From contig CP084166.1 in NCBI GenBank assembly GCA_021513695.1, positions 2,880,001 through 2,944,000 on the forward strand: a stretch of 64,000 bases of DNA, read 5' to 3'. A program made the translations under genes and the position numbers. The notes under the pieces are model-generated. The model made no database searches. It was not told the origin of the DNA and was given only the letters and a program-made list of their open reading frames with translations. Source of the stretch: Candidatus Heimdallarchaeum aukensis (GTDB lineage Archaea > Asgardarchaeota > Heimdallarchaeia > Heimdallarchaeales > Heimdallarchaeaceae). Below, piece by piece: positions 46,747-64,000 of this stretch (its first letter is position 1; every line of letters begins with the position of its first letter).

Positions 46747-47712
46747 TCATTTTTTCTTTTCAGCATTTTTTATGGCTACTATTTCTGCAGCTATACTTAT
46801 TGCTATTTCTTCTGGAGTTATACTGTTAATACTTATTCCTATTGGAGAGTGAACTTTTTCTAGCAATTCATCAGATATTCCTTTTTGCTTTAGATTCTCA
46901 AAAAGTTTCTTTTTCTTTGACTTACTAGCCATTAAGCCTATGTATTTGAATTTTTTATGGATAAGTTTTTCTAAAACCAATTCGTCGTACTTATGTCCAA
47001 ACGACATAATAGTTACATACACATTATTTCCTTCTGGTACATATTTTTCTATTTCTTCATAATCTATTACTTTTTTCACATTTGCGTAGTTATTGTTTTT
47101 CATTGTATCGAGATTTTCTCTATTGTCATAAACCGTAATATGGAAATCCAACGTTTTCATTATTCTAGAAAAGGCTAAAGATACATGTCCTCCTCCTACG
47201 ATTATTAATCTATTTCTCAAGCCTATATTTTCTTTAAATGTCCATTTTTCTCCTTCTTCTATGAATTCGTACTGCTTTTCTGACATTTTATCCAGTTCTA
47301 TTTTTAGTCCTTTTTCATTTATTGTAATTATTGCTTGTTCCGCCTTGTTATAAGCGTTTATTATTTTTTGTACTTCACTTTTATCTTTTTCAACTATAGG
47401 AACTATTGCAAACGTTTGTGTTCCTGAGCATACCATCCCTGATTTATGTTCTCCTCCTTTTTCATTATGTATCATAAACTCTTTTTCTGTAGTAAAGTCA
47501 TTTTTTCTTAGTTTTTCTTTCGCTCTTTCTATTAGTTGATATTCCGATAAGCCTCCACCCACTGTTCCTTCTGCTTTTTCTAGTGTTACAAACATTTTTG
47601 CTCCTTCTGCATTGGGAGCTGAACCTTTTCTTTCTATTATTTCTACTAGAACAACGTTTGAGCCTTTTTGAAGCTCAGATAATACACTTTTCCAAAACTT
47701 TTCATCATTCAC
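46747..47712 (-). CDS. xdhC: XdhC/CoxI-family molybdoenzyme maturation (accessory) protein.
   Basis: N-terminal XdhC_CoxI motif VLVEIIERKGSAPNAEGAKMFV...GGGL. C-terminal Rossmann LIIVGGGHVSLAFSRIMKTLDFHITVYD. Confidence 0.75.
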   Translation of the reverse strand: MNDEKFWKSVLSELQKGSNVVLVEIIERKGSAPNAEGAKMFVTLEKAEGTVGGGLSEYQLIERAKEKLRKNDFTTEKEFMIHNEKGGEHKSGMVCSGTQTFAIVPIVEKDKSEVQKIINAYNKAEQAIITINEKGLKIELDKMSEKQYEFIEEGEKWTFKENIGLRNRLIIVGGGHVSLAFSRIMKTLDFHITVYDNRENLDTMKNNNYANVKKVIDYEEIEKYVPEGNNVYVTIMSFGHKYDELVLEKLIHKKFKYIGLMASKSKKKKLFENLKQKGISDELLEKVHSPIGISINSITPEEIAISIAAEIVAIKNAEKKK

Positions 47713-47730
47713 GTTTCATCACTTTAGATT

Positions 47731-49989
47731 TTAAGAATTATTTTCATATAGGTAAAGTAAAAGTTTTTCTGGCGTTAATGGAGCCGAGTAAACCCATTCT
47801 TTATCTTTCCTAAATGCTCTTGTAGCGTTTTTTATAGCAAAATATGCTCCGATTCCGTACATGAATGGTGGCTCTCCTATAGCTTTAGATTTTAAAACTG
47901 CTTCTGGATTTTCTGCATTTTCTAGAAACTTCACCTTTATTTCGGGGGTGAATGGAAGATTTGGTACTTTATACGTTGCAAAGGAATTTGTCAAGATATG
48001 TCCTTCTTTGTACATTAGTTGCTCTATTGTCATCCACCCTATTCCTTGAAGTAACCCTCCTTCTGTTTGTCCTAAATCAACCAGATAATTTATACTCTTT
48101 CCTGCATCATGAACAATTGTTACTTTATCTATTGTATATGTTCCTCTTAAGCAATCTATTGTTACTTCTGTTAATGCTGCTCCAAAAACGTGGTAAGCAA
48201 AGGGTTTTCCTTTCTTTTCTTCTTTGTTAAAGAATATTTTAGGTGTAGCATACAAAGCTTGACTTGAAAGATTTACTCTACTCATGTATGCTGAATTTAC
48301 AAGTTCATTCCAACCTAGTTCTGTTTTCTTTCCTTTAACATATACATAATCTTCTTTTATTTCTATTTCCTCTGGTTGAACTTGAAGTTTCTCAGAAGCT
48401 ACTTTTTTCAGTCTTTCTACCAATCTATTACAAGCTATCTCTGCTGCCTTCCCATTCAAATCAGCCCCTGTACTCGCTGCTGTGGGTGAGGTGTTGATCA
48501 CTCTTGTTGTATTCGTACTTTCTATTCTTATTCTTTCAGGGTCTATTCCGAGAGCTAATGAAACTATGTGTCTAATTTTAACATTTACTCCTTGTCCCAT
48601 CTCTATGGCTCCAGTGCTTACACTTACGCTCCCATCTTTGTAAATATTCACTAGCGCTCCTGCTTGATTTAGAAAAGTACTTGTAAACGAAATGCCAAAG
48701 CAAATTGGCATGATTGAGAGACCTTTTTTCATGTACTTGTTCGATTGATTAAATTCTTCTATTTCTTTTTTCTTTTGTTCAAAATTCGTTTCTTTTAGTA
48801 GTTCTTCGAAGCTTCTTCTTGCATTTGATCTTTCTACTTTTTGCCCATAATGAAACTCGTCTCCTTCATTTAACAGATTTTTCTCTTGTAGAACATGTTT
48901 TGGAACACCCATTACTTCTGCAGCTTTGTCAATGGCTGCTTCTATCAAGAACATTCCTTGTGGTCCTCCGAACCCTCTAAAGGCTGTGAAAGGAGGTAAG
49001 TTTGTTTTACATGGATAACCTGTTACTTTTACATTTGGGATATAATATGAATTAGTAGAATGGAAAAGAGTTCTACTTAAGATAGCTGTTGATAGATCAG
49101 CACTTGCTCCAGAGTTCTGGTAAATAGATGCTTCAAAAGCTATAATTTTTCCCTCTTTTGTTAGACCTATTTTGTAATCACTTGAGTAGGGGTGTCTTTT
49201 TCCTGTCATCTGTATATCTTCTTTTCTGTTTAGAACAAGTTTTACTGGCCTTTTTGTATGGTATGCACCTAAAGCGCAAATAGCTGCCCACTGTGTAGCT
49301 TGATCTTCTTTTCCACCAAACCCTCCTCCTATTCTCTTAACATCTACTTCTATCTTATTCATATCTAAACCGAGTATTTTTGCTGTTGTACCTTGAACAG
49401 TAGTGGGAGCTTGAGTGCTGGAATAGATAAGAATCTTATCATTTTCATCAGGAATAGCTAATGCTGCTTGAGTTTCAAGATAAACGTGTTCTTGTCCTCC
49501 ATTTTCTACTGTTCCTTCAATAATAACATCACATTTTTCCCAAGCTGCATCGACATCTCCATTTGAAAGAGTATTAGATGGAGCAATAAAAAGACCTTTT
49601 TCTGCTGCTTCTCTCGGATCAAAAACTGCAGGAAGTTCTTCATACTCTATTTCTACCAACTTACTTGCATTTTTAGCTTGTTCTTTTGTTTCAGCTAAAA
49701 TTATCGCTATCGGTTGTCCTACGAATTCTACTTCGTCTTCTACTAATAGCACTTCATCTTGAATAATTCGCCCTAATTGATTTTCTCCAGGAATATCTTT
49801 AGAAGTAAGAATCTTGCATACTCCGGGGCTCTTTTCAGCTTTTTCTAAATTTAATTTAACTATTTTTCCGTGAGGAATTGTTGAAGTAAAAACAAATGCA
49901 TGTAACAAATTAGATGGTTCTGGTAAATCATCTACATACAAAGATTCTCCTTTTGTATGAGGAGCTAAAAATTCTTTAATTATTTTCAT
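47731..49989 (-). CDS. Xanthine dehydrogenase / aldehyde oxidoreductase family molybdopterin-binding large subunit.
   Basis: 752 aa. N-terminal a/b-hammerhead (GESLYVDDLPEPSNLLHAFVFTSTIPHGKIV), then Mo-binding domains (GGGFGGKE, ...RGFGGPQG...). Confidence 0.85.
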   Translation of the reverse strand: MKIIKEFLAPHTKGESLYVDDLPEPSNLLHAFVFTSTIPHGKIVKLNLEKAEKSPGVCKILTSKDIPGENQLGRIIQDEVLLVEDEVEFVGQPIAIILAETKEQAKNASKLVEIEYEELPAVFDPREAAEKGLFIAPSNTLSNGDVDAAWEKCDVIIEGTVENGGQEHVYLETQAALAIPDENDKILIYSSTQAPTTVQGTTAKILGLDMNKIEVDVKRIGGGFGGKEDQATQWAAICALGAYHTKRPVKLVLNRKEDIQMTGKRHPYSSDYKIGLTKEGKIIAFEASIYQNSGASADLSTAILSRTLFHSTNSYYIPNVKVTGYPCKTNLPPFTAFRGFGGPQGMFLIEAAIDKAAEVMGVPKHVLQEKNLLNEGDEFHYGQKVERSNARRSFEELLKETNFEQKKKEIEEFNQSNKYMKKGLSIMPICFGISFTSTFLNQAGALVNIYKDGSVSVSTGAIEMGQGVNVKIRHIVSLALGIDPERIRIESTNTTRVINTSPTAASTGADLNGKAAEIACNRLVERLKKVASEKLQVQPEEIEIKEDYVYVKGKKTELGWNELVNSAYMSRVNLSSQALYATPKIFFNKEEKKGKPFAYHVFGAALTEVTIDCLRGTYTIDKVTIVHDAGKSINYLVDLGQTEGGLLQGIGWMTIEQLMYKEGHILTNSFATYKVPNLPFTPEIKVKFLENAENPEAVLKSKAIGEPPFMYGIGAYFAIKNATRAFRKDKEWVYSAPLTPEKLLLYLYENNS

Positions 49990-51362
49990 AATTTAACCTC
50001 CATTTCAGGAAATAATGTCATAAAATGCGCAATAATTAATTGACGAACTAGTAGTCTTTTGTATTTTGCACTTCCTCTTACATCACTTATAGGACTTATT
50101 TCTGAGTCAGCTATTTCTAACGCTTCTCTAACTACTTCAGAATTAACCTCTTTATCATTTAGAAAGTTTGAAGTTTTTTCTAAATATTTAGGAACGGGAG
50201 CTACTCCTCCTACAGATAAATGGACATTCTTGATCTTATTTTCTTCTTTTTCAAACGATATTGCGCTGTTTACACTTGCTATATCTACATATTTTCGCAT
50301 AGCTACTTTTTCAAAATTGAAAAATCTCTTTTTTGATTTAATTCTTAACGATTCTACCACTTCTCCTTCTTCTAAATCCATTTGTTTGTATCCTTTGTAA
50401 AAATCTTTAAGAGGTAGAATTCTACTTTTTTCTCCTTTTCTCAATGATATTTCTGCTCCTAATCCTAAAAAATAGATTGTTAAATCTCCTATTGGAGACG
50501 CATTAACTAGGTTCCCTCCTAAAGTCGCTCTTATTCTTATTGGTAACGCAGAAACAACTCTTAAATCATTCTTTATATCAAAAAGCTCATTCAACTCTTC
50601 TGATAAGCGAATATCTTCCATACTCGCTAAAGCACCAATGTAAATATACCCATCTTCTTCCCAAATATCGTTTCTAATTTGCAGTTGAGACAGAAAAACA
50701 GGTTTTTCTATTTTCTCTCTTTGAACAAGTAAATCTGTTGCTCCTGCGACATTTGTTCCTTTACCATTTGATTCTAATTTTTCATTTAATTTCTCTAATT
50801 TTTCATGTATATTTTTAAAATATTCAGGAATAACGCCTAATTCAATTAGATAATTAACTCTCGCCGAATAATTAAGATCTTCTACTTTTATTTTTTCAGC
50901 TATTTTTTCTGCAGCACGCTTTATTGCTGCATAAGTTCCACATCTACACAAATTACCTTCAATTGCTGTTAAGATATCTTCTTTTACAAAAATTTCATTT
51001 AAGAAAAATCCAGTCAAACTCATAACAAAACCAGGAGTGCAAAATCCACACTGTGAAGCTCCTTCCTCCACTATTGCTTCTTGAATTGGAGTTAACTTTT
51101 CTTGATTTATTCCTTCAATAGTTACAACATGTTTTCCTATTATTTCTCCTAGAGGTAATATACAAGAAGTAACAGCTTTATATTTTACTGTAGATTCTTC
51201 CATTTCTCCAAGTAAAATCATACAAGCGCCACATTCTCCTTCATGACAAGCTTCTTTTACTCCAGTGAATCCTTTTTTTCTTAAAAAATCTAAAGTTGAA
51301 CTTCCTAAAGGAGCATCTATTTCTTCAATTTTGTTATTTAGTACGAACTTCATTTTTTTCAC
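49986..51362 (-). CDS. Fused [2Fe-2S] ferredoxin + FAD-binding (CoxS+CoxM-like) subunit of the molybdenum hydroxylase.
   Basis: CHEGECGACMILLG, QCGFCTPGFVMS and CRCGTY (two 2Fe-2S clusters), followed by a FAD-binding PCMH-type domain (GTNVAGATDLLVQ...). The stop overlaps the large-subunit start. Confidence 0.8.
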   Translation of the reverse strand: MKKMKFVLNNKIEEIDAPLGSSTLDFLRKKGFTGVKEACHEGECGACMILLGEMEESTVKYKAVTSCILPLGEIIGKHVVTIEGINQEKLTPIQEAIVEEGASQCGFCTPGFVMSLTGFFLNEIFVKEDILTAIEGNLCRCGTYAAIKRAAEKIAEKIKVEDLNYSARVNYLIELGVIPEYFKNIHEKLEKLNEKLESNGKGTNVAGATDLLVQREKIEKPVFLSQLQIRNDIWEEDGYIYIGALASMEDIRLSEELNELFDIKNDLRVVSALPIRIRATLGGNLVNASPIGDLTIYFLGLGAEISLRKGEKSRILPLKDFYKGYKQMDLEEGEVVESLRIKSKKRFFNFEKVAMRKYVDIASVNSAISFEKEENKIKNVHLSVGGVAPVPKYLEKTSNFLNDKEVNSEVVREALEIADSEISPISDVRGSAKYKRLLVRQLIIAHFMTLFPEMEVKL

Positions 51363-51519
51363 TGTTTTCTATTCTACCAAACATATCATAGCTCAAAGTT
51401 TACCTTTTAATGAGCTATAATATACTCTATTTATTACAAAGTTTCTAATTTTACGATATAAGTCTTATTAATCAAACAATTTATTTTCTTATTTTTTATG
51501 CAAGTGATTTGTTTTTCAA

Positions 51520-52758
51520 TTATTGAGTTTCGAACATCTTAACTATTTCTTCTTTTGAATATGACTTACTTGAGATAACTCCTTCTACAGCTTTAATATC
51601 TTTTAATCCATTTCCAGTTACAGCGACACAGACAGAATCTTCTTTTCTTATTTTTCCTTCTTTTATTAATTTTTTCAATCCTGCATATGGTGCTACAGCA
51701 GCTGGTTCTGCAAATAAGCCTGTTTCTTTTCCTAATTCTGAAATTGCTTCCAATATTTCTTCATCACTTACAGTCACATAGTATCCTCCACTTTCAGCGA
51801 CATATTTACAAGCTTTAATTACATCCCTTGGTGTTCCCACACTTATACTATCGGCAACTGTTGAGCCTTTAATTGGATGAGGAGTATAAGGTTCTCCTTT
51901 GTCAAAAACATGTTTAATTGCAGCTATTCCTTCTGCTTGTACTCCTATTATTTTAGGTATTGATTCTATTAATCCTATTTCCTTAAACTCTTTAAAACCC
52001 TTATACAGAGAACTTACTACTGTTCCATCTCCCACTCCTACAAGAACATAATCTGGAACTTTGAAATCATTTTGTACTGCAATCTCAAAGGCTCCCGTTT
52101 TTTTTCCCTCCAACAAATAAGGATTTATTGCTGCATGTCTGCAATACCACCCTTTCTTCAACCCAAGTTCCAAAGATAGATCATAAACTTCATCATATGT
52201 TCCTTCTACAGCGAAAACTTTTGCTCCTGATATTTCTAGTTGAGCTCTCTTTCCTCCGGGTATAGTTGAGGGGACGAAAATATAAGTTTCCATGGGCGTA
52301 TGAGCATTTAGCATAGCTAAAGAAGAGGCAGCATTACCTGTTGAAGCACAGAAAACAGTATCATTTTTTTCATCCAGAGCCATATTTATTGCTATTGAAC
52401 TTGCTCTATCTTTGTAAGAACTTGAAGGATTAGACCCATCATATTTTAACATTAAATCTTTTAAACCCAGTAAATCGAATTTATATAAGGGAGTTCCTCC
52501 TACATAGGGATCAAATTTTCCTTTTGCCTTTGTTGGTAAAAGAAAATCAAATTGATACATTGAAGCTTTTTTATAGAAATTCTTCTGAACTACGACGGGG
52601 TTCTCTTTTATCTTTTCATAGTCATAGATCACTTCAAGTGTACCCATAATTGGTCCACATTTTTCACAGAAGTATAGTCCTGGTCTAGGTTCATATTCTT
52701 TTTTGCAAGAAATGCAACGAAGGAAGTAGCTGCTCATTTGAATTCCTCTTTTTTTCAT
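51520..52758 (-). CDS. Threonine-synthase-family PLP enzyme (fold type II) with an N-terminal zinc ribbon.
   Basis: CISCKKEY...CEKCG Zn ribbon, VGGTPLYKF, then GSNPSSSYKDRASS (the TS-type xNPTGSFKDRG PLP-lysine motif) and GNAASS. Confidence 0.65.
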   Translation of the reverse strand: MKKRGIQMSSYFLRCISCKKEYEPRPGLYFCEKCGPIMGTLEVIYDYEKIKENPVVVQKNFYKKASMYQFDFLLPTKAKGKFDPYVGGTPLYKFDLLGLKDLMLKYDGSNPSSSYKDRASSIAINMALDEKNDTVFCASTGNAASSLAMLNAHTPMETYIFVPSTIPGGKRAQLEISGAKVFAVEGTYDEVYDLSLELGLKKGWYCRHAAINPYLLEGKKTGAFEIAVQNDFKVPDYVLVGVGDGTVVSSLYKGFKEFKEIGLIESIPKIIGVQAEGIAAIKHVFDKGEPYTPHPIKGSTVADSISVGTPRDVIKACKYVAESGGYYVTVSDEEILEAISELGKETGLFAEPAAVAPYAGLKKLIKEGKIRKEDSVCVAVTGNGLKDIKAVEGVISSKSYSKEEIVKMFETQ

Positions 52759-53837
52759 GTTAATACTCCACTAATTGCATCATAAGGACAACGAGATTCG
52801 CATAAACCGCACTGGATGCATTTGTTTTTGTCAACAATAATTTTTCCATCCTCTGATAATGCTCCAGCAGGACATATTTTCACGCAAAGACCACATAATG
52901 TGCACTTTTCATTAAATTCTGGAAAATTATTCTCTTTTTCTTCTTCAACTCTGAAAATAGTCTCCTTCCTTACTTTTCTTATTTCCTCAATTGATGAGAA
53001 ACCATACTTTTCCAATGCCTTAGGTAGATCTTTCACTATTTTATCGTAAAGATATCTCCCTTTAATTAAAGCGGAAGAAAGCATTTGAACCAAATCAGCT
53101 CCTGCAAAAATGAACTCTAACACATCTTCAGCTTTTGCTATTCCTCCTACTCCAATAATTGGTAAATCAGGAAAAGCTTTTCTTATATGATATACTCTAT
53201 GCAAAGCTATAGGTTTGATAGCTGGTCCACTGATCCACACTTCATCTCCAAGTAAGAGAGAACGGTTCTTTAGATCTACTGCAGTAGCTGGTCCTAAAGA
53301 GTTTATTGCTACTATTCCTGTAGCTCCAGCGTCAATTACTGTTTTTACGAAACCCAGATAGTCTGTTACATGAGGGCTGAGTTTCATAAAAATAGGTTTA
53401 TCTGTATTTTCCCTTATACTTCTCACGATTCCATCTAGATTTTCTTTGACATAATGTGTTGAAATTTCAAAGAAATCAGCAAAAGGGTCTAGCTTTGGAA
53501 TTAAATATCTAAAGTCTTCTTCTACATATCCTGCACTTATAATCAGTGGTTTATTTTTTTCCGAGTGAACTTTCGGTAGAATAGTTTCTATCCATTCATC
53601 AGAATGAAGTTCTGACCATAATTCTCTGTTATAAATTGTGTTTGATGTACCAGCTATACAAGGTTTCTTTACTACTGCTCCTTTTATTGAAATGGTTTTT
53701 GAGACCATGTAACCACAAGAATTGTTATTAAAAAACAGCATATTCTCTAATCCTTCACATAACGGTCCAGCAGCAGGACCTAAAGGGTTTGAAAATTTTT
53801 TTCCTAATAGTTCTATTGACAGATCCATTTTTTTCAC
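52755..53837 (-). CDS. Dihydroorotate/dihydropyrimidine dehydrogenase family TIM-barrel protein with a C-terminal 2x[4Fe-4S] ferredoxin domain (PreA-like).
   Basis: DHOD/DPD-like barrel (GPAAGPL..., ...IGVGGI...). C-terminal CTLCGLCVKICP and CIQCGLCESRCP. Confidence 0.7.
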   Translation of the reverse strand: MKKMDLSIELLGKKFSNPLGPAAGPLCEGLENMLFFNNNSCGYMVSKTISIKGAVVKKPCIAGTSNTIYNRELWSELHSDEWIETILPKVHSEKNKPLIISAGYVEEDFRYLIPKLDPFADFFEISTHYVKENLDGIVRSIRENTDKPIFMKLSPHVTDYLGFVKTVIDAGATGIVAINSLGPATAVDLKNRSLLLGDEVWISGPAIKPIALHRVYHIRKAFPDLPIIGVGGIAKAEDVLEFIFAGADLVQMLSSALIKGRYLYDKIVKDLPKALEKYGFSSIEEIRKVRKETIFRVEEEKENNFPEFNEKCTLCGLCVKICPAGALSEDGKIIVDKNKCIQCGLCESRCPYDAISGVLT

Positions 53838-53844
53838 TTTCCAA

Positions 53845-55155
53845 TTAATTCATTTTTTCTATTCTTTCCCATAATTTTTTAGAAGCATCAGTTGCTTCTT
53901 TGTAAATCGTTTCTTCTTCAAAAATACTATTGTACTCTTTTATTAGAGGTTTGCCTTTTACAAATACCCAAGAAGGTTTAAGGTTATCAAATATTCCAAA
54001 GAATAAATGGCCAAAAACGTTATTCTCATTCATTGTTGTGGGTTGAATATAGTCAACTAATATAAAGTCAGCAACATAATCTTCTTTTATTTTTCCGATT
54101 TTTATATTCATCATCTTTCCAAAATATTCGTAAGAATGAACAATATGTTCTTTTATCTCATCTAAGCCTATTCCTACAGGATTTTTCATTCCTGCTTTTC
54201 CTAAGTAAAACAGGTTAGTCCATTCTTTGGCTATATTTGTACCTAGACCATCAGTTCCTATCAAAATAGGGATATTGAATTGTTTATAAAGAGAGTAGTT
54301 GAAAAATCCTACAGCGTTGTTTAGATTAGAAGTTGGATTAAGAGCTATATAGGCTCCTTTTTTACTCATTATTTCTGCTTCTTTTTCATTAATATGAACA
54401 CAATGTGCAAAAATCGAGTTTTCATTAATTAAATTGTAATCATCATATCTTTCTACCACTCTTTTACCGTATTTAGATAAAGAATCGTCTTCATCTTCTT
54501 TACTTTCTGCTACATGAACATGTATAGGATTTTTTTCGATTATTTTACTTATTTTCTCCAAAGTTTCATTCGATAAGCTCATCGAAGCATGTAAACCGAA
54601 CATACCTTTAGCATCAGAGGAGTTAAAAGCTAGTCCTGAGAGATTTTCTTCAATACACTCTTCAACATCAAACCTGTCACTTGTTTCAAAGCAAAAAATC
54701 CCTCTCATTCCTAAGGTTTCAACTATTGCTCTTTTTAATTCAGTTAAACTGCCTTTAATATCTATTCCACTTGCATGATGGTCTATAAGAGATGTAACTC
54801 CATTTTTCAGTGATTCTATTCCATAAACTAACCCACTGTAATAGATTGTTGGGTTATCTAATTGACTGTCAAACTTCCACCAAAGTTGTTCTAACAATTC
54901 TTTGAAGCTTGTAGGGTTGAAAGGTATGGAAGCTCCTCTTACTAATGTAGAATAAATATGTGTATGAAAATTGATTAAACCAGGAAGGAGAAGCTTGTTT
55001 TTACCGTCTATTACTTGATCAATCTCATCATTTTTTCTGAAATTATCCATTGAACCTACTTCAACGATTTTTTCATTGAACAAGCAATAACCATCATCAA
55101 TAAATGTATCATAGTCATAGATTTTCACGTTAACAATAGCTTTCATATACATCAC
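53845..55155 (-). CDS. SsnA/chlorohydrolase-like amidohydrolase (metal-dependent hydrolase superfamily).
   Basis: LLPGLINFHTHIYS (HxH metal motif), GTDG and downstream His/Asp ligands. Length is 436 aa. Confidence 0.65.
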   Translation of the reverse strand: MMYMKAIVNVKIYDYDTFIDDGYCLFNEKIVEVGSMDNFRKNDEIDQVIDGKNKLLLPGLINFHTHIYSTLVRGASIPFNPTSFKELLEQLWWKFDSQLDNPTIYYSGLVYGIESLKNGVTSLIDHHASGIDIKGSLTELKRAIVETLGMRGIFCFETSDRFDVEECIEENLSGLAFNSSDAKGMFGLHASMSLSNETLEKISKIIEKNPIHVHVAESKEDEDDSLSKYGKRVVERYDDYNLINENSIFAHCVHINEKEAEIMSKKGAYIALNPTSNLNNAVGFFNYSLYKQFNIPILIGTDGLGTNIAKEWTNLFYLGKAGMKNPVGIGLDEIKEHIVHSYEYFGKMMNIKIGKIKEDYVADFILVDYIQPTTMNENNVFGHLFFGIFDNLKPSWVFVKGKPLIKEYNSIFEEETIYKEATDASKKLWERIEKMN

Positions 55156-56494: not shown

Positions 56495-56588
56495 TAATTT
56501 GATTTTAAATTTTTCACAAATATAGTTTTGGTTGAGTTTCTGTTTTCAATACAAACAATTTAATATATATTTTATTTTTTACTAATTA

Positions 56589-58052
56589 ATGACATTAATT
56601 CCTTTAGATATTAACTCTGAAACCAGAAAAGAGAACATTGAAAGAATAAAAGAGAGAGATATTATTATTCCTACTTTTGCTCAAATGAGGAATCCAGAAC
56701 TTATACCTTCCTCTATTAAAGAAGAATTAAAAGAGATTGGTCTATGGGATATTCATCCACGAAATCTCTTTAGAATAACTTGGAAAAATGAACCTGTTAA
56801 ATTCGGAGGAGGTTTTGGAGAACCTAACTACATTGAGCTTCCTCCTGAATTAACTGGAGTTGAAGCTAGAATCATTGCTTTGGTTGGAAAGTATTTTCCC
56901 ACTGGTGCTCACAAAGTAGGTGCAACTTTTGGTTGTTTAGCACCGCATTTAGTTTCTGGATCTTTTGATGTTAAAAGAATGAAAGCTGTGTGGCCAAGTA
57001 CAGGAAATTACTGTAGAGGAGGAGCTTACGTAGCTTCTTTATTAGCTTGTGAATCTATAGCTATCCTTCCAGAAGAAATGTCTCAAGAAAGGTTTAACTG
57101 GCTCAAAACTGTTGCTGGAGAGATTATTGCAACTCCAGGTTCAGAAAGTAATGTTAAGGAAATTTACGACAAAGTCTGGGAATTAAGAGCAGAGAGAGAA
57201 AATATTTTTGTTTTTAACCAATTTGAAGAATTCGGAAACTCTCTATTCCACTATGATGTCACTGGAAATGCTTTCAAAGAAGTTTTAAACAAAGAACTTG
57301 GTGGAGGAAGGTATCGTGGTGTTACTTTAACAACTGGTTCAGCGGGAACAATTGCCGTTGGAGATTTCCTCAAGGAATTATATCCCTCATCAAAAATTGC
57401 TGCAGGAGAAGCTTTACAATGTCCAACAATGTTACTAAATGGCTTTGGAGCGCATACAATTGAGGGAATAGGTGATAAACACATTCCGTGGATTCATAAC
57501 GTCAAAAACACAGACATGGTTATTGCAATCGATGACAGAGATGTAATGTCAATTATGCGTCTTTTCAATGAAGAAGAAGGAAAGAAATATCTGGTTGAAC
57601 AAGGAGTTTCAGAAGAAATCGTGAATAAACTTGATTTGTTGGGTCTATCCAGTATTGCTAACATGCTTATGGCTATAAAATTCTCAAAGTATTATGAACT
57701 TACAAGAGAAGATGTTGTACTCACAGTATTCACTGATAGCATGGAACTTTACCAATCTAGGATTTTAGAAATGAGACAAAAATATGGAGATTATAATGTT
57801 AGAGATGCAATTAAAGACTTTCATCTCAGTTTACATGGTCAAAAGTTAGATAACTTACTTGAACTTACTTATCCACAAAAAAGAAGGATACACAACCTCA
57901 AATATTTCACTTGGATTGAGCAACAAGGAAGGCAGTTAGAAGAACTTAATGAACAGTGGTACAACGACTCTTACTGGAAAGAATTACGAACTTACCCTGA
58001 TAAAATTGATGAATTAATTAATCAATTCAACGAAGAAGTGGGATTAATATAA
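56589..58052 (+). CDS. TrpB-like fold-type-II PLP-dependent enzyme with a C-terminal extension.
   Basis: FPTGAHKVGA resembles the TrpB HTGAHKIN PLP-lysine motif. TGSAGT is a Gly-rich phosphate loop. Length is 487 aa. Confidence 0.6.
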   Translation: MTLIPLDINSETRKENIERIKERDIIIPTFAQMRNPELIPSSIKEELKEIGLWDIHPRNLFRITWKNEPVKFGGGFGEPNYIELPPELTGVEARIIALVGKYFPTGAHKVGATFGCLAPHLVSGSFDVKRMKAVWPSTGNYCRGGAYVASLLACESIAILPEEMSQERFNWLKTVAGEIIATPGSESNVKEIYDKVWELRAERENIFVFNQFEEFGNSLFHYDVTGNAFKEVLNKELGGGRYRGVTLTTGSAGTIAVGDFLKELYPSSKIAAGEALQCPTMLLNGFGAHTIEGIGDKHIPWIHNVKNTDMVIAIDDRDVMSIMRLFNEEEGKKYLVEQGVSEEIVNKLDLLGLSSIANMLMAIKFSKYYELTREDVVLTVFTDSMELYQSRILEMRQKYGDYNVRDAIKDFHLSLHGQKLDNLLELTYPQKRRIHNLKYFTWIEQQGRQLEELNEQWYNDSYWKELRTYPDKIDELINQFNEEVGLI

Positions 58053-58067
58053 ACAAAAAAAGAAAAA

Positions 58068-59924
58068 TTATTTTTTTCTTTTTAATTTTTTAACTCTGGC
58101 CAGTTTGCGAATAAAATAAAGAAATGTCACGAGAAAAACTATCCCAAAAGTTGGTGCATAGAAAATAAAGTCATTAGTATAAATAAAAAGATCAATGTTA
58201 TCATTAAAGCCATCAAAATCTGTATCTTTAGAAAAGGGATTTGTTCTTTTATTATATTCTTTGGCATTCGAAACCCCATCGTCATCAAAATCTTCATTCC
58301 CATCATTAACACCGTTATTATCACTGTCAATACAAGTAGGAGAAGTGTTGAGACATGAAATTTCATAACCATCAGGAAGAGAATCATTATCTGTATCCTT
58401 TTCAGCAACATTAGTTCCGTACAAATGCTCGCTATAATCAGATAAGCAATCATTATCTTGGTCTACTGCTAAAGAGCTCCCTCGTTGTAACGAATTACCT
58501 CTTGCTGTTCCCCAATAGATCCTTTTTCCTGTTAATCCTTGAGAGAAATCGTAGGCATAAATACCTAATCCTGACCAAAGAAGAATGACTTCATTTTCTC
58601 CATCATTATCTAAATCAACAATGGCGCCTGTATCTACAATATCTACAGAATCAAGTCTTTCTTCACTAGATGGATTGCTTATCTTCCATAAAGTTTCACC
58701 TGTTTTACCATTTAAAGCATAGTAAGATTCACATCCACCAATTAGCACATCAAGTCTATTATCATTATTGAGGTCGCCTATTAGAGGAGTTGAAAAAGTA
58801 ATGTAGAAGCAATCACAATCTGGAATATTAAGAGATTTTCCAAATTTAAAAGACCAAATAAGTCTTCCTTTTAAACCATCAAGCACATATAATTTTCCAT
58901 CTTCGCTTGTGAATATTATATCTAGAACGCCATCACAGTTCAAATCTCCTAAAGATGAACGACTACCTATATTACCTCCAGTCATATACTCCCAAATCTT
59001 TCTTCCTGACTCAGCATCTATAGCATAGAAGAAATCATTATTTGATCCAACAAAAATTTCTAGTTTTCCATTCTCATCTACATCTGCAATTAATGGAGTT
59101 TTGAGAGTGTTATCTTTAGAATCTTTTTTCACAAAACTATGTTCCCAAAGTAGAGTATGGGTTTTTCCATCAACCGCTAACAGACTATCTAAATAGGTTC
59201 TAACAATAATATCATCGCATCCATCATCATTCAAATCCGTAACAGCAATAGTTCCAGATATGATTCGATAATCTTCATACTTCCATAATTCTGTTCCATT
59301 TTCAGGAGAAAGGCTAACAATTCCTCCTGGGTTGATTTGTTTATCCTTTTTCGAAGAAGAATAAGAAACTAAAACCTCTTGCTTTAAGTCATTATTTGTA
59401 TCTCCAAGTAGAGCATTACCAATATTATCTCCTGGAGGACTATAAGACCATATATTTGTAGAATCTTTCTCAAAAGCATATACAGTTCCATTTAAACCCA
59501 CGCTTAAAATAATTTCAAGTTCATTGTCCTTGTCTAAATCAAAAAGGTTAGCGCCGTAACACCATACAGTGGGAAACCAACAGCTTTCACATGTAAAGTT
59601 TTTACTCCAAAAAATGGAACCATTTAATCCATTAAGAGCGAATAAACCTAGATCACTAATACCTACTAGAACATCTAAGTTGTTATCATTGTTTATATCA
59701 ACAAATGAAATATCACCATAATTAGGAGATGGATTAATTAATCTCCATAAAACCTTATAATTACTATCGTTGAAAGAGGAGCTTCTAATACCAATGTTAT
59801 GTGTATTATTTGATTTACAAAAAGGAAAATCAAGTGCAACTGTAATATTTTTAATTGAAATAAAAGATAGTAACACAAAAAGTATTGTTGTTAAAAGAAG
59901 AATTTTTCTTTTATATATCGTCAT
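58068..59924 (-). CDS. Secreted beta-propeller (PQQ/FG-GAP-like) protein with thrombospondin-type-3-like Ca-binding repeats and a C-terminal TM + basic tail.
   Basis: Signal peptide ILLLTTILFVLLSFISIK. Repeated D.N.DG..D/ LDG..G motifs. DTDNDSLPDGYE, DSDNNGVNDGNEDFDDDGVSNAKE and DTDFDGFNDNID resemble TSP3-type DxDxDG repeats. C-terminus FGIVFLVTFLYFIRKLARVKKLKRKK. Confidence 0.65.
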   Translation of the reverse strand: MTIYKRKILLLTTILFVLLSFISIKNITVALDFPFCKSNNTHNIGIRSSSFNDSNYKVLWRLINPSPNYGDISFVDINNDNNLDVLVGISDLGLFALNGLNGSIFWSKNFTCESCWFPTVWCYGANLFDLDKDNELEIILSVGLNGTVYAFEKDSTNIWSYSPPGDNIGNALLGDTNNDLKQEVLVSYSSSKKDKQINPGGIVSLSPENGTELWKYEDYRIISGTIAVTDLNDDGCDDIIVRTYLDSLLAVDGKTHTLLWEHSFVKKDSKDNTLKTPLIADVDENGKLEIFVGSNNDFFYAIDAESGRKIWEYMTGGNIGSRSSLGDLNCDGVLDIIFTSEDGKLYVLDGLKGRLIWSFKFGKSLNIPDCDCFYITFSTPLIGDLNNDNRLDVLIGGCESYYALNGKTGETLWKISNPSSEERLDSVDIVDTGAIVDLDNDGENEVILLWSGLGIYAYDFSQGLTGKRIYWGTARGNSLQRGSSLAVDQDNDCLSDYSEHLYGTNVAEKDTDNDSLPDGYEISCLNTSPTCIDSDNNGVNDGNEDFDDDGVSNAKEYNKRTNPFSKDTDFDGFNDNIDLFIYTNDFIFYAPTFGIVFLVTFLYFIRKLARVKKLKRKK

Positions 59925-60046
59925 TAATCTATTATTAAAAAAAGCGTATATTAATATTAACTATCCAAGCTTACAAATTTAAACTCTTTAAAAAATGAAA
60001 AGAGAATATAAAAAATTTTAATTTACTAGGAAGAAAATTTCTTTTT

Positions 60047-61021
60047 TTATCCCATTGTTAGCCACATAACTGCTTTTGCTGTATGTAACCTATTTTCTGC
60101 TTCATCATAGATAACAGAATTTGGTCCATCTATTACTGAATCTTCTACCTCATTTCCCCTATCAGCTGGTAGAGCGTGCATGTAGATTACATCTTTTTTG
60201 GCTAGTTTCATCATCTCTTCTGTACATTTCCAGTCTTTGAATTGAGAGATATCTACATCTCCTTTTTTACCACTCCAGCTTCCCCAGTTTTTAGGTATGA
60301 CAACGTCTGCGTCTCTATAAGCTTCTTCCATATCATGTGTTATTCTAAATGATCCTCCATTTTCTTCAGCATTCTTTCTTGCTTCTTCTATAACCCAATC
60401 TGGCATCTCAAATCCTTCAGGGTAAGCTAAAGTCACATCCATTCCATATCTTGGGAAAAGTAAACTTTGTGTAAGTGGTACTGAAATGGGTTTCTTATGT
60501 GATGTAGCATAAGCCCAGATTATTGAAACTTTGAGGTTTTTTGTTTCTTTTTTCTTTTCAATAATTGTCATAAGGTCAGCTATTCCTTGCATTGGATGAT
60601 AAAGGTCATCTTGTAGACTCATAATAGGCACTCTTGAGTGTTTAGCCATGTCGTTCAAATATTTATTTCCAATTCCCCAGAAGCAGTTTCTGCAAGCTAT
60701 TGCATGGCCATATCTTGAAAGTACTGAAGCAGTATCTTTTGCTACTTCTCCATGAGATATTTGCATTGTAGAAGTATCAAGATAATTAGCATGTCCTCCC
60801 AACTGAGCTATTCCTGCTTCCATAGAGTTTCTGGTTCTTGTAGATTGTTCAAAAAACATCAAAAAAATCGTTTTATATGGCAGATAAGGTGTAGGTTCTC
60901 CTTTCAAGAATTTCTCTTTTAACTCAAAAGACACTTCTAGTAAAGTATCTATTTCTTCTTTTGTCCAATCACGTAATGTGATGAAATCTTTTCCTCTTAA
61001 TTTAGATCTCATATTTCTCAC
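60047..61021 (-). CDS. Carbamoyltransferase of the ATCase/OTCase superfamily (YgeW-like given the context).
   Basis: FEQSTRTRNSMEAG (carbamoyl-phosphate-binding STRTR) and MHALPADRG (HxLP motif). Length is 324 aa. Confidence 0.75.
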   Translation of the reverse strand: MRNMRSKLRGKDFITLRDWTKEEIDTLLEVSFELKEKFLKGEPTPYLPYKTIFLMFFEQSTRTRNSMEAGIAQLGGHANYLDTSTMQISHGEVAKDTASVLSRYGHAIACRNCFWGIGNKYLNDMAKHSRVPIMSLQDDLYHPMQGIADLMTIIEKKKETKNLKVSIIWAYATSHKKPISVPLTQSLLFPRYGMDVTLAYPEGFEMPDWVIEEARKNAEENGGSFRITHDMEEAYRDADVVIPKNWGSWSGKKGDVDISQFKDWKCTEEMMKLAKKDVIYMHALPADRGNEVEDSVIDGPNSVIYDEAENRLHTAKAVMWLTMG

Positions 61022-61042
61022 CTATTTTTTTTCTTTTTATTT

Positions 61043-62248
61043 CTATTCTTTCTTCATCATTTCAGAATATTTCATTGGAATTAATGCATAAACCGCTGTA
61101 GCAATATCTAACTCTTTCTTAAACGTTTTTTCGTTAGGTGCATGAGCTTCTTCCTCATGTCCAGGACCAAAGCCTATGCAAGGAACATTGTGCATTCCCA
61201 TAATATATACTCCATTTGTGGAGAATGTCCATTTATCTAAAAGTGGCTTCTTTCCCATTATTTCTTCTGCGGTTTCTACCATCATCCCACAAAGAGGATG
61301 ATCTTCTTCTAAAACCCAAGTGGGGAAATAGCTATCCACTAGAGTGCGATAGCCAGTGTAAGAAGGTTCATTGTATGTGTACATTTCTACTTTTGCATTG
61401 TATTTTTTCACAGAAGGAAGATTTTTGATTTCATTTAGAGCTGTTTCTTTTGTTTCTCCAAAAGTTAACCTTCTATCTACTGATATGCTACATCCATCTG
61501 CTACAGCGCATCTTGATGGTGAACTTGAAAATATTTCTGTTACAGTTAAAGAGCCTTTTCCTAGAAACTCATCATTTTTTAGATCTCCATGTAGTTTTTC
61601 CAACTCTTGAATGATTTTAGCCATTTTATAGATAGCATTTTCTCCTCTTTCTGGAGCAGAACCATGAGCACTTATTCCTGTGGTTGTTACTTTTATTTCC
61701 ATTCTCCCTCTCTGTCCTCTGTTTACTTTCAAGGATGTTGGTTCAGTTAAAACTACAAATTCAGGTTCAATAACTTTTTCAGTCAAAATATGGTGCCAAC
61801 ATAGTCCATCACAGTCTTCTTCCTGAACAGAGCCTACTATCCAAACAGTGGTGTCCCCGACTATATCTAAATCTTTGATTATTTTTCCAGCATAGACCAT
61901 ACAAGCAAAGCCACCCTCTTGATCACTTGCTCCTCTTCCATAGATTATTTCGTCGTCTTCATATCCTTCATAAGGATCGTGTGTCCAGTTTTCTCTATTT
62001 CCCACGTCTACAGTGTCGATATGTGCGTCAAAAGCTATAACATGTTTTCCGTTTCCTATCCTTCCTAGAATGTTACCCATTTTATCTATCTTTATCTCAT
62101 CATAACCTAATTTTTCCATTTCTTGCTTTATACGTTCAATTAGTTCTTTTTCTTTCCCACTTGTACTGGGAATGCGAATCATATCCCTTAGGAATTTATA
62201 CATATCTTTTTTGTATTCTTCAATTTTTTCCATTACTTTATCTTTCAT
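61043..62248 (-). CDS. M20-family metallohydrolase (YgeY / DapE / ArgE-like).
   Basis: [30 protein letters not shown] and later His/Glu ligands. Length is 401 aa. Confidence 0.75.
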
Positions 62249-62257
62249 TTTTAACCC

Positions 62258-64000
62258 TCATCTTTTTTTTCTAGCTATAGGGAGCTCTGTTCTCCACTTT
62301 CCATCATATTGATAGAACGCGCCTGTTACTGCTCCTGCAGTTGGTACTAAACCTATTTCTCCCACACCCTTTGCTCCAAAACCACCAATTTCTTCAGGTT
62401 CTTCAATTATTATTACTTCTATTTCTGGAGTATCTTTAGCCTTTAATATTTGCAGATCTCTAATTTTTAATGAAACTGGAACACTCTTTGTTGTTGGAAA
62501 GTCCTCTGATAAAGTGTGACCTAAACCCATATGTATTCCTCCTTCTATCTGACCTGCAACAGCCAAAGGATTTACTGCTCTACCCACATCGTGAGCAGCC
62601 AGTATTTTCTTCAGTTTCCCGTTTTCATCAAGAAAAGCTACTTGAACTGCATAACTGAAAGCTAAATGTGTAATTGGGTTATCTACTGGGGTACCTGGCT
62701 TAACTGTTATGTTGGTAACATACTCACCATGATACTCTTTTCCTACTAATTCCTTAGGAGAGTGGTTTTTTAGGTCTTCTGCAAGTTTTTCTGCAGCATA
62801 CTTTGCCGCCATAGTATCAAGTGCTGTTGCTCTTGAAGCAGTTGTCATTCCACACTTTGTTTTATCGTAACTTATCGATTTTACATCCATCTTTGAAGGG
62901 TGGATATTTGTTAATTCGCTAACTGCTTGCGTTAAAACAGTAAATAATCCTTGTCCCATTTCAGTAAAACCAGTCAATATTTCCAACCTTTCGTCTTCAA
63001 GAACACGGATTAATACTCTACCTGTATCTTCGAGAGCGTTACCTATTCCTGTGTTTTTGATTCCACAAGCGATACCTTTTGGTCCTTTATAATTCTTATA
63101 CTGCTCTTTAACTGCATCTAAACATTTCTGTAAACCAACAACTGTTTTTGTCATTATTTGTCCAGTAGCAAAACGTTTTCCTTCTCTCAAGATGTTTCGT
63201 TCTCTTATATCAAAATCATCTATTTCCTTTCCATCATCCCTCATCATCGCAGCAATCATGTTTAAACATGTTTCTATTGCAAAAGAGGTTTGATTTACTC
63301 CAAATCCTCTCATAGCTCCACAAGGAGGATTATTAGTGTAAACAGCTGTTGCATCTACATCTATTGCAGGCAAATAATATGGACCGCATGAGTGCCCTGC
63401 AGCACGTTCAACTACAGCTCCTCCAACAGAAGCATAAGCACCAGTATCGCCTATTATCCTTATTCTTGCTCCAGTTAGCTTACCATTTTCATCAGCTCCA
63501 ACTTCATATCGCATAATCATTGGATGGCGTTTAGGATGCATTCTCAAAGATTGCTCCCTAGTTAGAACTGTTTTCACTGGTTTCTTCAAGAGATAAGCTG
63601 CAAGAGCTGTTTGGGCTTGAACAGACAGATCTTCTTTACCTCCAAAAGCTCCCCCATTTGTTACCAGTTCAACTATTACATTCTCTTTTTCTAATCCTAG
63701 CACTTCTGCTATTTGTCTCTGATCTTCATGTACTCCTTGCCCTTGACTATAAACATGTACACCTTTGTCTGTGGGTAAAGCAAGCGAAGCTTCTACTTCT
63801 AGAAAAGCATGTTCTATTCTTTGAGTTCTAAATTCTTGTTTAACAAAATATTTTGAATTCCTAAAAGCTTCTTCCACATCTCCCCTGCTGAAAACAGTTC
63901 GGCTGAGTATATTACCGCTTTCATGTATTTTTTCAGCTGTAGTGTCCATAGCTTTTATAGGGTCATCTAAAGGTTCGAGTACCTCATATTCCACCTTAAT
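62258..64000 (-). CDS. Second xanthine-dehydrogenase-family molybdopterin-binding subunit (partial, N-terminus beyond the window end).
   Basis: GGAFGGKED, GDTGAYASVGGAVVERAAGH...CGAMRGFG and the C-terminal MoCo dimerisation region. The reading frame is open upstream of the GTG chosen by the ORF track (..IKVEYEVLEP), so the gene continues past 64000. Confidence 0.8.
   Translation of the reverse strand: MKVEYEVLEPLDDPIKAMDTTAEKIHESGNILSRTVFSRGDVEEAFRNSKYFVKQEFRTQRIEHAFLEVEASLALPTDKGVHVYSQGQGVHEDQRQIAEVLGLEKENVIVELVTNGGAFGGKEDLSVQAQTALAAYLLKKPVKTVLTREQSLRMHPKRHPMIMRYEVGADENGKLTGARIRIIGDTGAYASVGGAVVERAAGHSCGPYYLPAIDVDATAVYTNNPPCGAMRGFGVNQTSFAIETCLNMIAAMMRDDGKEIDDFDIRERNILREGKRFATGQIMTKTVVGLQKCLDAVKEQYKNYKGPKGIACGIKNTGIGNALEDTGRVLIRVLEDERLEILTGFTEMGQGLFTVLTQAVSELTNIHPSKMDVKSISYDKTKCGMTTASRATALDTMAAKYAAEKLAEDLKNHSPKELVGKEYHGEYVTNITVKPGTPVDNPITHLAFSYAVQVAFLDENGKLKKILAAHDVGRAVNPLAVAGQIEGGIHMGLGHTLSEDFPTTKSVPVSLKIRDLQILKAKDTPEIEVIIIEEPEEIGGFGAKGVGEIGLVPTAGAVTGAFYQYDGKWRTELPIARKKR

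Follow-up and report, generated by a model that had tools for sequence, protein, structure and literature searches.

A probable purine-to-pyruvate gene cluster of mosaic bacterial origin in the Asgard archaeon Candidatus Heimdallarchaeum aukensis

The DNA analysed here, which we call the window, is a stretch of 64,000 nucleotides from Candidatus Heimdallarchaeum aukensis (contig CP084166.1, positions 2,880,001 to 2,944,000), and our subject is a cluster of genes for purine-type catabolism at its end, in positions 46,747-64,000. A first-pass annotation made from the sequence alone had described this region as an archaeal copy of the bacterial anaerobic purine and uric acid cluster, lying in an Asgard-like host. 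The genome is indeed that of a Heimdall archaeon, and the listed genes were all recovered as open reading frames (ORFs) with Pfam and NCBIfam matches (Table 1). ORFs were annotated by profile scans against both collections, and scores were compared with the curated NCBIfam cut-offs. The analysis established which genes the cluster holds and which families they belong to, how far their active sites and synteny are conserved, what their phylogenetic origin is and which host carries them. The region holds 12 ORFs, 11 on the minus strand and one on the plus strand, in three apparent units: XdhD-YgeY-carbamoyltransferase, HyuA-SsnA-UacX-ThrC-like and XdhA-XdhB-XdhC. Within these units, genes are separated by gaps of 7-21 nt or overlap by 4 nt (xdhA with xdhB, and the ThrC-like gene with uacX), which indicates co-transcription. 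A public contig, L001, is 100% identical to window positions 51043-64000 over 12,958 bp, and we therefore take it to be the true continuation of the window. It runs 2.7 kb past base 64000, through the full 881-aa molybdenum enzyme that the window end cuts, a MocA-like gene and then an unrelated large protein. The N-terminus of the 881-aa enzyme and the MocA-like gene lie ~0.9-1.5 kb past the window end.

Table 1. ORFs of the cluster, in window coordinates, with the profile matches on which the family assignments rest.
Feature	Position	Strand	Length	Profile evidence
XdhC-family maturation factor for XdhAB	46747-47712	-	321 aa	Pfam XdhC_CoxI + XdhC_C
XdhB-type molybdopterin subunit, canonical xanthine dehydrogenase	47731-49989	-	752 aa	TIGR02965, 833 bits (cut-off 849.5)
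XdhA-type fused 2x[2Fe-2S] + FAD subunit	49986-51362	-	458 aa maximal ORF, called 455 aa	Pfam Fer2, Fer2_2, FAD_binding_5, CO_deh_flav_C
ThrC-like fold-type-II pyridoxal phosphate (PLP) enzyme, N-terminal Zn ribbon	51520-52758	-	412 aa	PALP; TIGR00260
UacX-type reductase, DHO_dh (FMN) + 2x[4Fe-4S]	52755-53837	-	360 aa	Pfam DHO_dh + Fer4 x2
SsnA-family amidohydrolase	53845-55155	-	436 aa	NF005540, 367 bits (cut-off 444)
HyuA-like cyclic amidohydrolase	55163-56494	-	443 aa	TIGR02033, 308 bits (cut-off 393)
Divergent CysK/CBS-like PLP enzyme	56589-58052	+	487 aa	Pfam PALP, 57 bits
Beta-propeller protein	58068-59924	-	618 aa	Pfam PQQ_2 / FG-GAP repeats
Compact YgeW-like carbamoyltransferase	60047-61021	-	324 aa ORF, called 321 aa	Pfam OTCace_N + OTCace
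YgeY-family M20 hydrolase	61043-62248	-	401 aa	TIGR03526, 632 bits (cut-off 321.5)
Second Mo enzyme ([2Fe-2S]x2 + molybdenum cofactor, Moco), cut by window end	62258-64000	-	C-terminal 580 of 881 residues	TIGR03311

The roles of XdhD, UacX/YgfK, SsnA, HyuA, YgeW, YgeY, YgeX and YqeA were established biochemically in bacteria in 2025 (PMC12507026; bioRxiv 10.1101/2025.04.24.650524). The E. coli route starts with the reduction of urate to 2,8-dioxopurine by XdhD, and YgfK then reduces this product. The two rings are opened by SsnA and HyuA, which yields 2,3-diureidopropionate; its ureido groups are removed by YgeY and by YgeW, the latter acting with the carbamate kinase YqeA, and YgeX turns the resulting 2,3-diaminopropionate into pyruvate. 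The same two studies describe a C. difficile XdhD that has no FAD subunit and is 25.6% identical to E. coli XdhD, and SsnA has been described as a marker of uricolytic clusters (PMC12507026). We propose, at a probability of roughly 80%, that the window cluster and ~1.5 kb beyond it encode the clostridial variant, with UacX, of this 2,8-dioxopurine or reductive uric acid pathway, an anaerobic route from purines to pyruvate. XdhAB, matured by XdhC, would oxidise hypoxanthine and xanthine to urate, from which the FAD-less 881-aa Fe-S/Moco enzyme, encoded beside a MocA-like cytidylyltransferase, would take the C6 oxygen to yield 2,8-dioxopurine. UacX, carrying FMN and two [4Fe-4S] clusters and probably fed by ferredoxin, would then reduce the purine core, SsnA would open the first ring, and HyuA would open the remaining hydantoin ring to 2,3-diureidopropionate. 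The compact YgeW-like carbamoyltransferase would phosphorolyse one ureido group to carbamoyl phosphate and YgeY would hydrolyse the other, leaving 2,3-diaminopropionate for the ThrC-like PLP enzyme, in the place of YgeX, to deaminate to pyruvate and ammonia. We infer all of these substrate assignments from homology and gene position, with the enzymes studied in E. coli, C. difficile and C. sporogenes as the reference.

The arrangement of the cluster is widely shared. Using a profile of Heimdall SsnA sequences, we collected 80 loci from species-representative genomes. Twenty-one are Heimdall loci (Ca. H. endolithica, 'Heimdallarchaeota archaeon', one 'Promethearchaeati archaeon' and three 'uncultured archaeon' metagenome-assembled genomes); the 59 others come from Bacillota, Thermotogota, Mycoplasmatota and others. 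Syntenic relatives of the window cluster are present in the 21 other Heimdall genomes and in many bacteria. The complete chromosome of H. endolithica PR6 (CP084167.1) carries the same cluster at 90-96% nucleotide identity, with the same gene order and proteins that are 89-98% identical in amino-acid sequence. A core of SsnA-UacX-ThrC-like-XdhA-XdhB(-XdhC) recurs in ~17/21 of the other Heimdall species genomes, and together with the order in H. endolithica this indicates that the genes are not co-located by chance. Bacterial loci L032, L039, L045, L053, L054 and L072 have the order YgeY-carbamoyltransferase-CysK-like-HyuA-SsnA-UacX-ThrC-like, identical to that of the window, with proteins 42-78% identical to those encoded there, and an Acidaminobacter locus (L074) differs only in lacking the CysK-like gene. 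The bacteria with this order are Dethiosulfatibacter, Peptostreptococcaceae, Tissierellales and relatives, and identity to the window proteins is 73-78% for the carbamoyltransferase, 61-69% for YgeY, 54-60% for the ThrC-like enzyme, 48-57% for SsnA, 50-56% for UacX and 43-50% for HyuA.

The ring-cleavage enzymes retain the features expected of their families. SsnA is 29% identical to E. coli SsnA over its full length and 50-57% identical to bacterial SsnA proteins, and it keeps the HxH, HxHxAE and GTDG motifs. Its gene lies 7 nt upstream of that for the PF01180 protein with two [4Fe-4S] clusters, an arrangement in which uacX directly follows ssnA in 20 archaeal and 49/59 bacterial loci. This downstream protein had been read as a PreA-like Fe-S protein of the DPD type. 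The DHO_dh domain and both [4Fe-4S] clusters are there, but the protein fails the NCBIfam cut-offs for PreA and PyrD, and its domain make-up and position match UacX as defined in PMC12507026. HyuA is 29% identical to the E. coli enzyme, with the HxH, carbamylated-Lys, His, His and Asp positions conserved. By analogy with the bacterial pathway, UacX is proposed to be the 2,8-dioxopurine reductase, SsnA to open the ring of the reduced 2,8-dioxopurine, and HyuA to open the hydantoin ring to 2,3-diureidopropionate.

YgeY scores far above its TIGR03526 cut-off and has 60% identity to E. coli YgeY; it is proposed to hydrolyse the remaining ureido group to give 2,3-diaminopropionate. The neighbouring carbamoyltransferase shares with E. 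coli YgeW the motifs WAYxxSxxKPxSVP, GMDVTLAxPEG, GGSFR, DADVxxPKxW and KDWxCTEEMM, so that its earlier description as YgeW-like stands as far as the substrate domain is concerned. It is 35-38% identical to E. coli YgeW but 72 residues shorter, lacking the YgeW insertions and C-terminal extension, and it scores below both YgeW cut-offs, in two stretches (TIGR03316 / NF005538, 189 and 201 bits vs 500 and 453). We therefore do not take it for a full-length YgeW (~390 aa) of the trefoil-knotted type. A plain ornithine carbamoyltransferase (OTCase) was rejected as well: the protein is below the OTCase cut-off (TIGR00658, 264 bits vs 281), it has neither the ornithine-binding DxxxSMG loop nor an SMG motif, and it carries HALP in place of HCLP. 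Its counterparts in clostridial clusters, encoded at the corresponding position, are 73-78% identical to it, and some of those clusters have a true YgeX. Four Clostridium loci (L029, L044, L049 and L063) have the order YgeX-YgeY-compact carbamoyltransferase-HyuA-SsnA-UacX followed by an enzyme like E. coli XdhD, which links the compact carbamoyltransferase with genuine uricolytic clusters. Judged by this company, it is the predicted functional counterpart of YgeW in that cluster type, and it is proposed to phosphorolyse a ureido group to carbamoyl phosphate.

Both molybdenum enzymes have features of purine hydroxylases and not of the aldehyde- or nicotinate-oxidising type. XdhA and XdhB have the two-subunit, Fe-S/FAD plus Moco architecture, with XdhB scoring just below the TIGR02965 cut-off. 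The best solved-structure match of XdhB is human xanthine oxidoreductase (XOR, 586 bits), with Rhodobacter XdhB at 535 bits, and in an alignment to human XOR it conserves the equivalents of bovine Glu802, Arg880, Phe914, Phe1009, Thr1010 and Glu1261 (6/6). On these residues, XdhB is predicted to be a xanthine dehydrogenase (XDH) and not an aldehyde oxidase. The nearest relatives of XdhB outside the Heimdall clade are Acidobacteriota/Aminicenantes XdhB proteins (58-62% identity). As its nearest sequences overall are these bacterial ones, we claim no special tie between eukaryotes and Heimdall for this subunit. XdhC, the final gene of an XdhA-XdhB-XdhC block conserved in ~15 Heimdall loci, encodes a protein below the NCBIfam cut-offs for xdhC (139 bits vs 162) and XdhC_rel_AOR. 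It is also the sole match to an E. coli YqeB query, a partial one with 31% identity over 163 residues; no YqeB or YqeC was found in any archaeal locus recovered. The second enzyme, reconstructed at full length from L001, has a [2Fe-2S]x2-hammerhead-Moco architecture with no FAD domain. It passes TIGR03311 ('selenium-dependent xanthine dehydrogenase') with 897 bits against a cut-off of 830 (608 bits for the window fragment) and has retained both the Glu802-like GGKE motif and GVGE with the catalytic Glu. Its BLASTP identity to E. coli XdhD is 25%, as low as that in the published C. difficile XdhD assignment. Its nearest relatives outside Heimdall are Acidobacteriota/Gemmatimonadota proteins (57-60%), and XdhD-type enzymes occur in at least 30 Heimdall protein clusters. 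Its gene overlaps by 4 nt that of the MocA/YgfJ-like cytidylyltransferase, which is 23% identical to E. coli MocA. The 881-aa enzyme is our proposed dehydroxylase of urate to 2,8-dioxopurine, with XdhAB as an alternative candidate for the interconversion of urate and 2,8-dioxopurine.

These same enzymes bear on whether the cluster degrades a different N-heterocycle, such as pyrimidines or hydantoins by a Pyd-like route, or nicotinate with the molybdenum enzymes as hydroxylases; the first-pass annotation had considered nicotinate or pyrimidine equally likely substrates. UacX, HyuA and the M20 hydrolase belong to the same classes as PydA, PydB and PydC, HyuA and UacX fall under their curated cut-offs, and the second-best solved match of the FAD-less enzyme is Eubacterium barkeri nicotinate dehydrogenase. 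That dehydrogenase, however, has GGKL where the Heimdall enzyme has the purine-type GGKE, and a Pyd route needs no SsnA, carbamoyltransferase, PLP lyase or XDH. YgeY passes its specific equivalog widely and is 60% identical to its E. coli namesake, for which a role in urate breakdown has been demonstrated, the uricolytic marker SsnA stands next to UacX, and XdhB carries the full set of xanthine-specific residues. Together, these features point to purines, and we consider another heterocycle improbable.

Both of the fold-type-II PLP enzymes noted earlier are present, but neither matches E. coli YgeX at BLASTP E<1e-3, and no YgeX was found in the window, in L001 or in the H. endolithica contig L003. 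The ThrC-like gene might be the host's own threonine synthase and a chance neighbour, in which case the pathway would stop at 2,3-diaminopropionate or use an unlinked lyase. It passes the thrC equivalog (TIGR00260, 193 bits vs 167), and among solved structures threonine synthases match it best. In T. thermophilus threonine synthase, Thr88, Ser155, Arg160 and Asn188 are, we take it, ligands of the substrate phosphate, the O-phosphohomoserine phosphate-binding set presumably being Thr88, Asn154, Ser155, Arg160 and Asn188. In 4/4 solved threonine synthases these four positions hold Thr, Ser, Arg and Asn, but in 50/50 cluster-linked ThrC-like homologues Ala stands at positions 88 and 155, Leu or Met at 160 and Asp at 188 (T. 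thermophilus numbering), while the PLP lysine is retained. The gene overlaps uacX, holds its operon position in 19 archaeal and 34 bacterial loci and never occurs alongside YgeX: among the 59 bacterial loci none has both, 8 have YgeX only, 34 have the ThrC-like gene only and 17 have neither (Fisher p = 0.0005, a value inflated by shared ancestry, with the YgeX loci representing ~3 clades). On the loss of conserved residues and the gene context we rejected a genuine threonine synthase, and a chance neighbour seems hardly likely. We infer instead that the ThrC-like enzyme replaces YgeX, non-orthologously, as 2,3-diaminopropionate ammonia-lyase. The CysK-like enzyme is a weak member of its superfamily (Table 1), and its best NCBIfam match, cysK, reaches 90 bits where the cut-off is 351. 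Homologues occur in 27/59 bacterial uricolytic loci, together with either YgeX or the ThrC-like enzyme.

A third alternative concerns XDH, which could serve in defence against oxidative stress by making urate as a radical scavenger, its neighbours being functionally unrelated; such a use of urate has been proposed for cultured Hodarchaeales and Heimdallarchaeia. A recent preprint reads Heimdallarchaeia Xdh as a urate-making antioxidant or aerotolerance trait and notes its expression in strain HC1 (bioRxiv 10.1101/2025.02.26.640444). XdhAB also differs in phylogenetic origin from the ring-cleavage genes, and a more distant XdhB homologue with 63% identity (L088) has no pathway genes in the 10 kb on one side; the contig ends on the other side, and we regard this locus as uninformative on the context of XdhB. 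Against such a role, xdhA-xdhB-xdhC directly follows SsnA-UacX-ThrC-like on the same strand in the genomes of ~17 Heimdall species, and in the bacterial donor group the same position is held by the pathway's own molybdenum enzyme. Urate would moreover not accumulate, given the urate-consuming genes in the same cluster. The two roles are not strictly exclusive, but this operon linkage argues for a catabolic over an antioxidant role, at least in the family Heimdallarchaeaceae, and an XDH unconnected to its neighbours appears very unlikely.

That the cluster is bacterial DNA misjoined to an archaeal contig, as the bacterial affinity of most of its proteins outside the Heimdall clade might suggest, is effectively refuted. 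Genes for deoxyhypusine synthase, a Ras-family GTPase and an intein-bearing MCM helicase share the same contiguous 64-kb sequence, and together they mark the host as archaeal. Cluster and remaining window agree in relative synonymous codon usage (r = 0.97) and in GC content at third codon positions (0.21 vs 0.22). They are indistinguishable in these respects, which excludes contamination and indicates an old, fully adapted acquisition. The independent assembly L001 is identical over its whole overlap, and the cluster is present in the complete H. endolithica chromosome and on a 3.08-Mb contig (3,081,793 bp) of Ca. H. aukensis. That contig encodes the NCBI protein with which the 881-aa enzyme shares 100% identity, a match that also assigns the window to this species. 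Finally, the sequences of the 22 archaeal genomes (the 21 Heimdall loci plus the window) are monophyletic.

The phylogenies support the inter-domain transfer that the first-pass annotation had raised. In neighbour-joining (NJ) trees, with 22 archaeal sequences in that of SsnA, the archaeal sequences are monophyletic in 46-50/50 bootstraps. For 6/6 genes (YgeY, carbamoyltransferase, HyuA, SsnA, UacX and ThrC-like), the archaeal sister lies within a Peptostreptococcales/Tissierellales-like set in 91-100/100 NJ bootstraps. The six concordant trees support an entry of these genes into an ancestor of the Heimdall clade from a Peptostreptococcales/Tissierellales-like bacterium, and, because the bacterial loci share the gene order as well, they suggest a transfer as one block. 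The two molybdenum enzymes would come from a different, Acidobacteriota-like source, judging from their nearest relatives. With six clostridial-like ring-cleavage genes and two Acidobacteriota-like molybdenum enzymes, the cluster is a mosaic.

Carbamate kinase is one component that varies among the archaeal clusters. As the first-pass annotation had reported, none lies inside the window, but its suggestion that one may lie just beyond did not hold: we found none in the 64-kb window, the 2.7-kb extension on L001 or 21 kb of H. endolithica, including by tblastn with a Heimdall kinase. Other Heimdall clusters have a bona fide carbamate kinase (TIGR00746, 377 bits vs 358; 51% identical to YqeA) beside the carbamoyltransferase. 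In these (L084-L086), the MocA and 881-aa enzyme genes are followed on the opposite strand by carbamate kinase and by YgeW-like and ATCase-like transferases, and then by HyuA and SsnA-UacX; in L084 the kinase and the two transferases occupy 12648-15559, between the 881-aa enzyme and HyuA. The YgeW-like transferase of these loci (326 aa) belongs to a second lineage, 48% identical to the window's, and the ATCase-like transferase (317 aa) has PVVQPDY where the RxQxER aspartate motif is expected. These clusters contain no YgeY and no CysK-like gene. Another archaeal locus (L089:1-15200 / L090) is an independently assembled purine cluster with a three-subunit XDH, MocA, a UacX-like protein, an SsnA closer to that of E. 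coli, a ThrC-like enzyme, two YgeW-like transferases, carbamate kinase, an enzyme of the 881-aa type (69% identity) and a HyuA-like protein; its neighbours are aEF-1beta, aS21 and PAC2, and there is no M20 hydrolase in the cluster. The kinases within these clusters link an ATP-yielding step to the pathway in archaea, and such loci point to a possible variant of the pathway with phosphorolysis of both ureido groups. Another Heimdall locus (L041:1725-3017) has an IS605 OrfB/TnpB-like gene with a Cas12f-like TNB domain between the ATCase-like transferase and HyuA.

Several observations weigh against the purine-to-pyruvate assignment. SsnA, HyuA and XdhB score below their equivalog cut-offs (Table 1), as does XdhA (TIGR02963, 324 bits vs 467). 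The candidate dehydroxylase matches E. coli XdhD at only 25% identity and is most closely related to uncharacterised Acidobacteriota proteins, which makes the assignment of the urate step to either molybdenum enzyme uncertain. The CysK-like enzyme is not accounted for by the proposed pathway, and the window and its 2.7-kb extension contain no carbamate kinase, YqeB, YqeC, SelD, nucleobase transporter or purine deaminase. The inflated Fisher value for YgeX and the ThrC-like gene belongs here too, and so do two features of the phylogenies: the trees rest on distances, and their loci were chosen for resemblance to the archaeal SsnA.

One gene of the region probably lies outside the pathway. The beta-propeller gene, on which the first-pass annotation was silent, is missing between the carbamoyltransferase and CysK-like genes of H. 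endolithica, and no homologue was found in any other locus recovered, so that it is probably a species-specific insertion; within the clusters of two other Heimdall genomes (L016 and L084) there are unrelated SBBP beta-propeller genes. The YgeY protein is encoded on two public contigs, L001 and L002. The latter, a Logan contig from SRR15988958, represents the same locus, with a YgeY gene 100% identical to that of the window, and has the molybdenum enzyme, carbamoyltransferase, SsnA and beta-propeller each broken into 2-3 ORFs. These breaks look like indel errors of that assembly and not pseudogenes. Paralogues (60-73% identity) of a ~950-aa protein without a Pfam domain flank the cluster on both sides: two tandem copies lie downstream of xdhC (40271-46338) and one beyond mocA (L001:1-894), and H. 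endolithica has the same arrangement (L003, 2-1210 and 20417-21307). Elsewhere in the window, the MCM gene (2237-6637, 1466 aa in total) contains two inteins, one with a LAGLIDADG homing-endonuclease domain. At 10530-11937, a KaiC-like ATPase gene overlaps a gene for a Ras/Roc-family small GTPase, an Asgard eukaryotic-signature protein. Genes for a 2-oxoacid:ferredoxin oxidoreductase (POR gamma, a 105-aa ORF, alpha and beta) lie at 12097-15142, 30 kb from the cluster; we claim no linkage, and the enzyme could oxidise pyruvate from the pathway and feed reduced ferredoxin to UacX and the FAD-less molybdenum enzyme. At 27871-30635, the gene for an Exo_endo_phos family nuclease/phosphatase (485 aa) overlaps a gene for a major facilitator superfamily (MFS) transporter, a pair with a possible role in nucleic-acid scavenging, which could supply purines for breakdown. 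Neither Rfam nor tRNA scans of the 64-kb window gave any match, and the host identification rests on proteins.

We regard the cluster as an archaeal, mosaic variant of a recently characterised pathway that has so far been described only in bacteria. The two studies of that pathway surveyed bacteria only, and the word 'archaea' is absent from both (PMC12507026; bioRxiv 10.1101/2025.04.24.650524). The Heimdallarchaeum genome paper makes no mention of purine, xanthine, molybdenum or selenium, and we found no literature report of a 2,8-dioxopurine pathway in archaea. Searches combining Asgard or Heimdall with ssnA, xanthine dehydrogenase or purine led only to the antioxidant/aerotolerance preprint cited above. 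A wider picture can be drawn, which we offer tentatively and consider, taken whole, somewhat less probable than an even bet. Heimdallarchaeia, as the closest archaea to eukaryotes, would ferment purines from sediment nucleic acids by a mosaic pathway of bacterial parts, and the Xdh that recent scenarios of eukaryogenesis use as an aerotolerance marker would be primarily catabolic. The threonine-synthase-derived PLP enzyme would replace YgeX, in many bacteria too, and in several archaeal lineages a second carbamoyltransferase beside carbamate kinase would replace YgeY, turning both ureido groups into ATP.

Heimdall (Asgard) archaea are among the closest known relatives of eukaryotes. If the pathway is conserved across more than 20 Heimdall species, nucleobases would be a testable source of energy and nitrogen for Asgards, which are otherwise described mainly as peptide fermenters. 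The cluster would, if so confirmed, be a clear case of multi-gene operon transfer between domains followed by mosaic rebuilding, and it would warn reconstructions of the archaeal ancestor of eukaryotes against taking Heimdall Xdh for a sign of oxygen tolerance. It would also draw attention to two enzyme families that go by the wrong name in current annotation, a 'threonine synthase' and an 'ornithine carbamoyltransferase', both probably pathway-specific.

Among known systems, the Heimdall cluster most resembles that of C. difficile and C. sporogenes. As in these clostridia, SsnA is paired with a PF01180-type UacX and not with YgfK; HyuA, YgeY, an FAD-less Fe-S/Moco enzyme ~25% identical to E. 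coli XdhD and a separate XDH are present; and carbamate kinase may be unlinked in clusters of this type. The gene order is identical to that in loci of Dethiosulfatibacter, Peptostreptococcaceae and Tissierellales. Unlike the clostridial cluster, it resides in an Asgard host, has a ThrC-like PLP enzyme in the operon and no YgeX, and draws on Acidobacteriota-like versions of both molybdenum enzymes, with XdhAB of the fused Fe-S/FAD plus Mo two-subunit type with XdhC; it also has a compact YgeW-like carbamoyltransferase where C. difficile has the hydrolase UacY. The E. coli ygeW-ygeX-ygeY-hyuA-yqeA ... ygfK-ssnA-ygfM-xdhD region follows the same pathway logic and offers homologues for six of the proteins (YgeY 60%, YgeW 35%, SsnA 29%, HyuA 29%, XdhD 25% and MocA 23% identity), but the window has no YgfK, YgfM, YgeX, YqeA, YqeC, YgeV regulator or purine transporter. 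The earlier assignment to a purine or uric acid cluster is thus upheld for the clostridial UacX variant and not for the E. coli ygeW-ygfM layout.

More distant comparisons apply to single modules. With Rhodobacter capsulatus and eukaryotic XOR, the Heimdall XdhAB shares the subunit architecture, the XdhC chaperone and all of the xanthine-binding and catalytic residues; unlike them, it sits in an anaerobic urate-consuming operon, and so it probably feeds catabolism and does not end at urate. The arginine deiminase module, a catabolic OTCase with carbamate kinase, likewise converts a ureido group to carbamoyl phosphate, from which the kinase can make ATP, and in other Heimdall clusters the kinase adjoins the carbamoyltransferase; the Heimdall transferase differs in having no DxxxSMG loop, and no kinase is linked to the H. 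aukensis cluster. The reductive pyrimidine (Pyd) pathway shares enzyme classes with the Heimdall cluster, UacX and HyuA corresponding to clostridial PydA and PydB and an M20 hydrolase being able to act as PydC. Unlike the Pyd pathway, the Heimdall cluster also has SsnA, two Mo hydroxylases, a carbamoyltransferase, PLP enzymes and a YgeY-specific equivalog match, a combination that points to purines.

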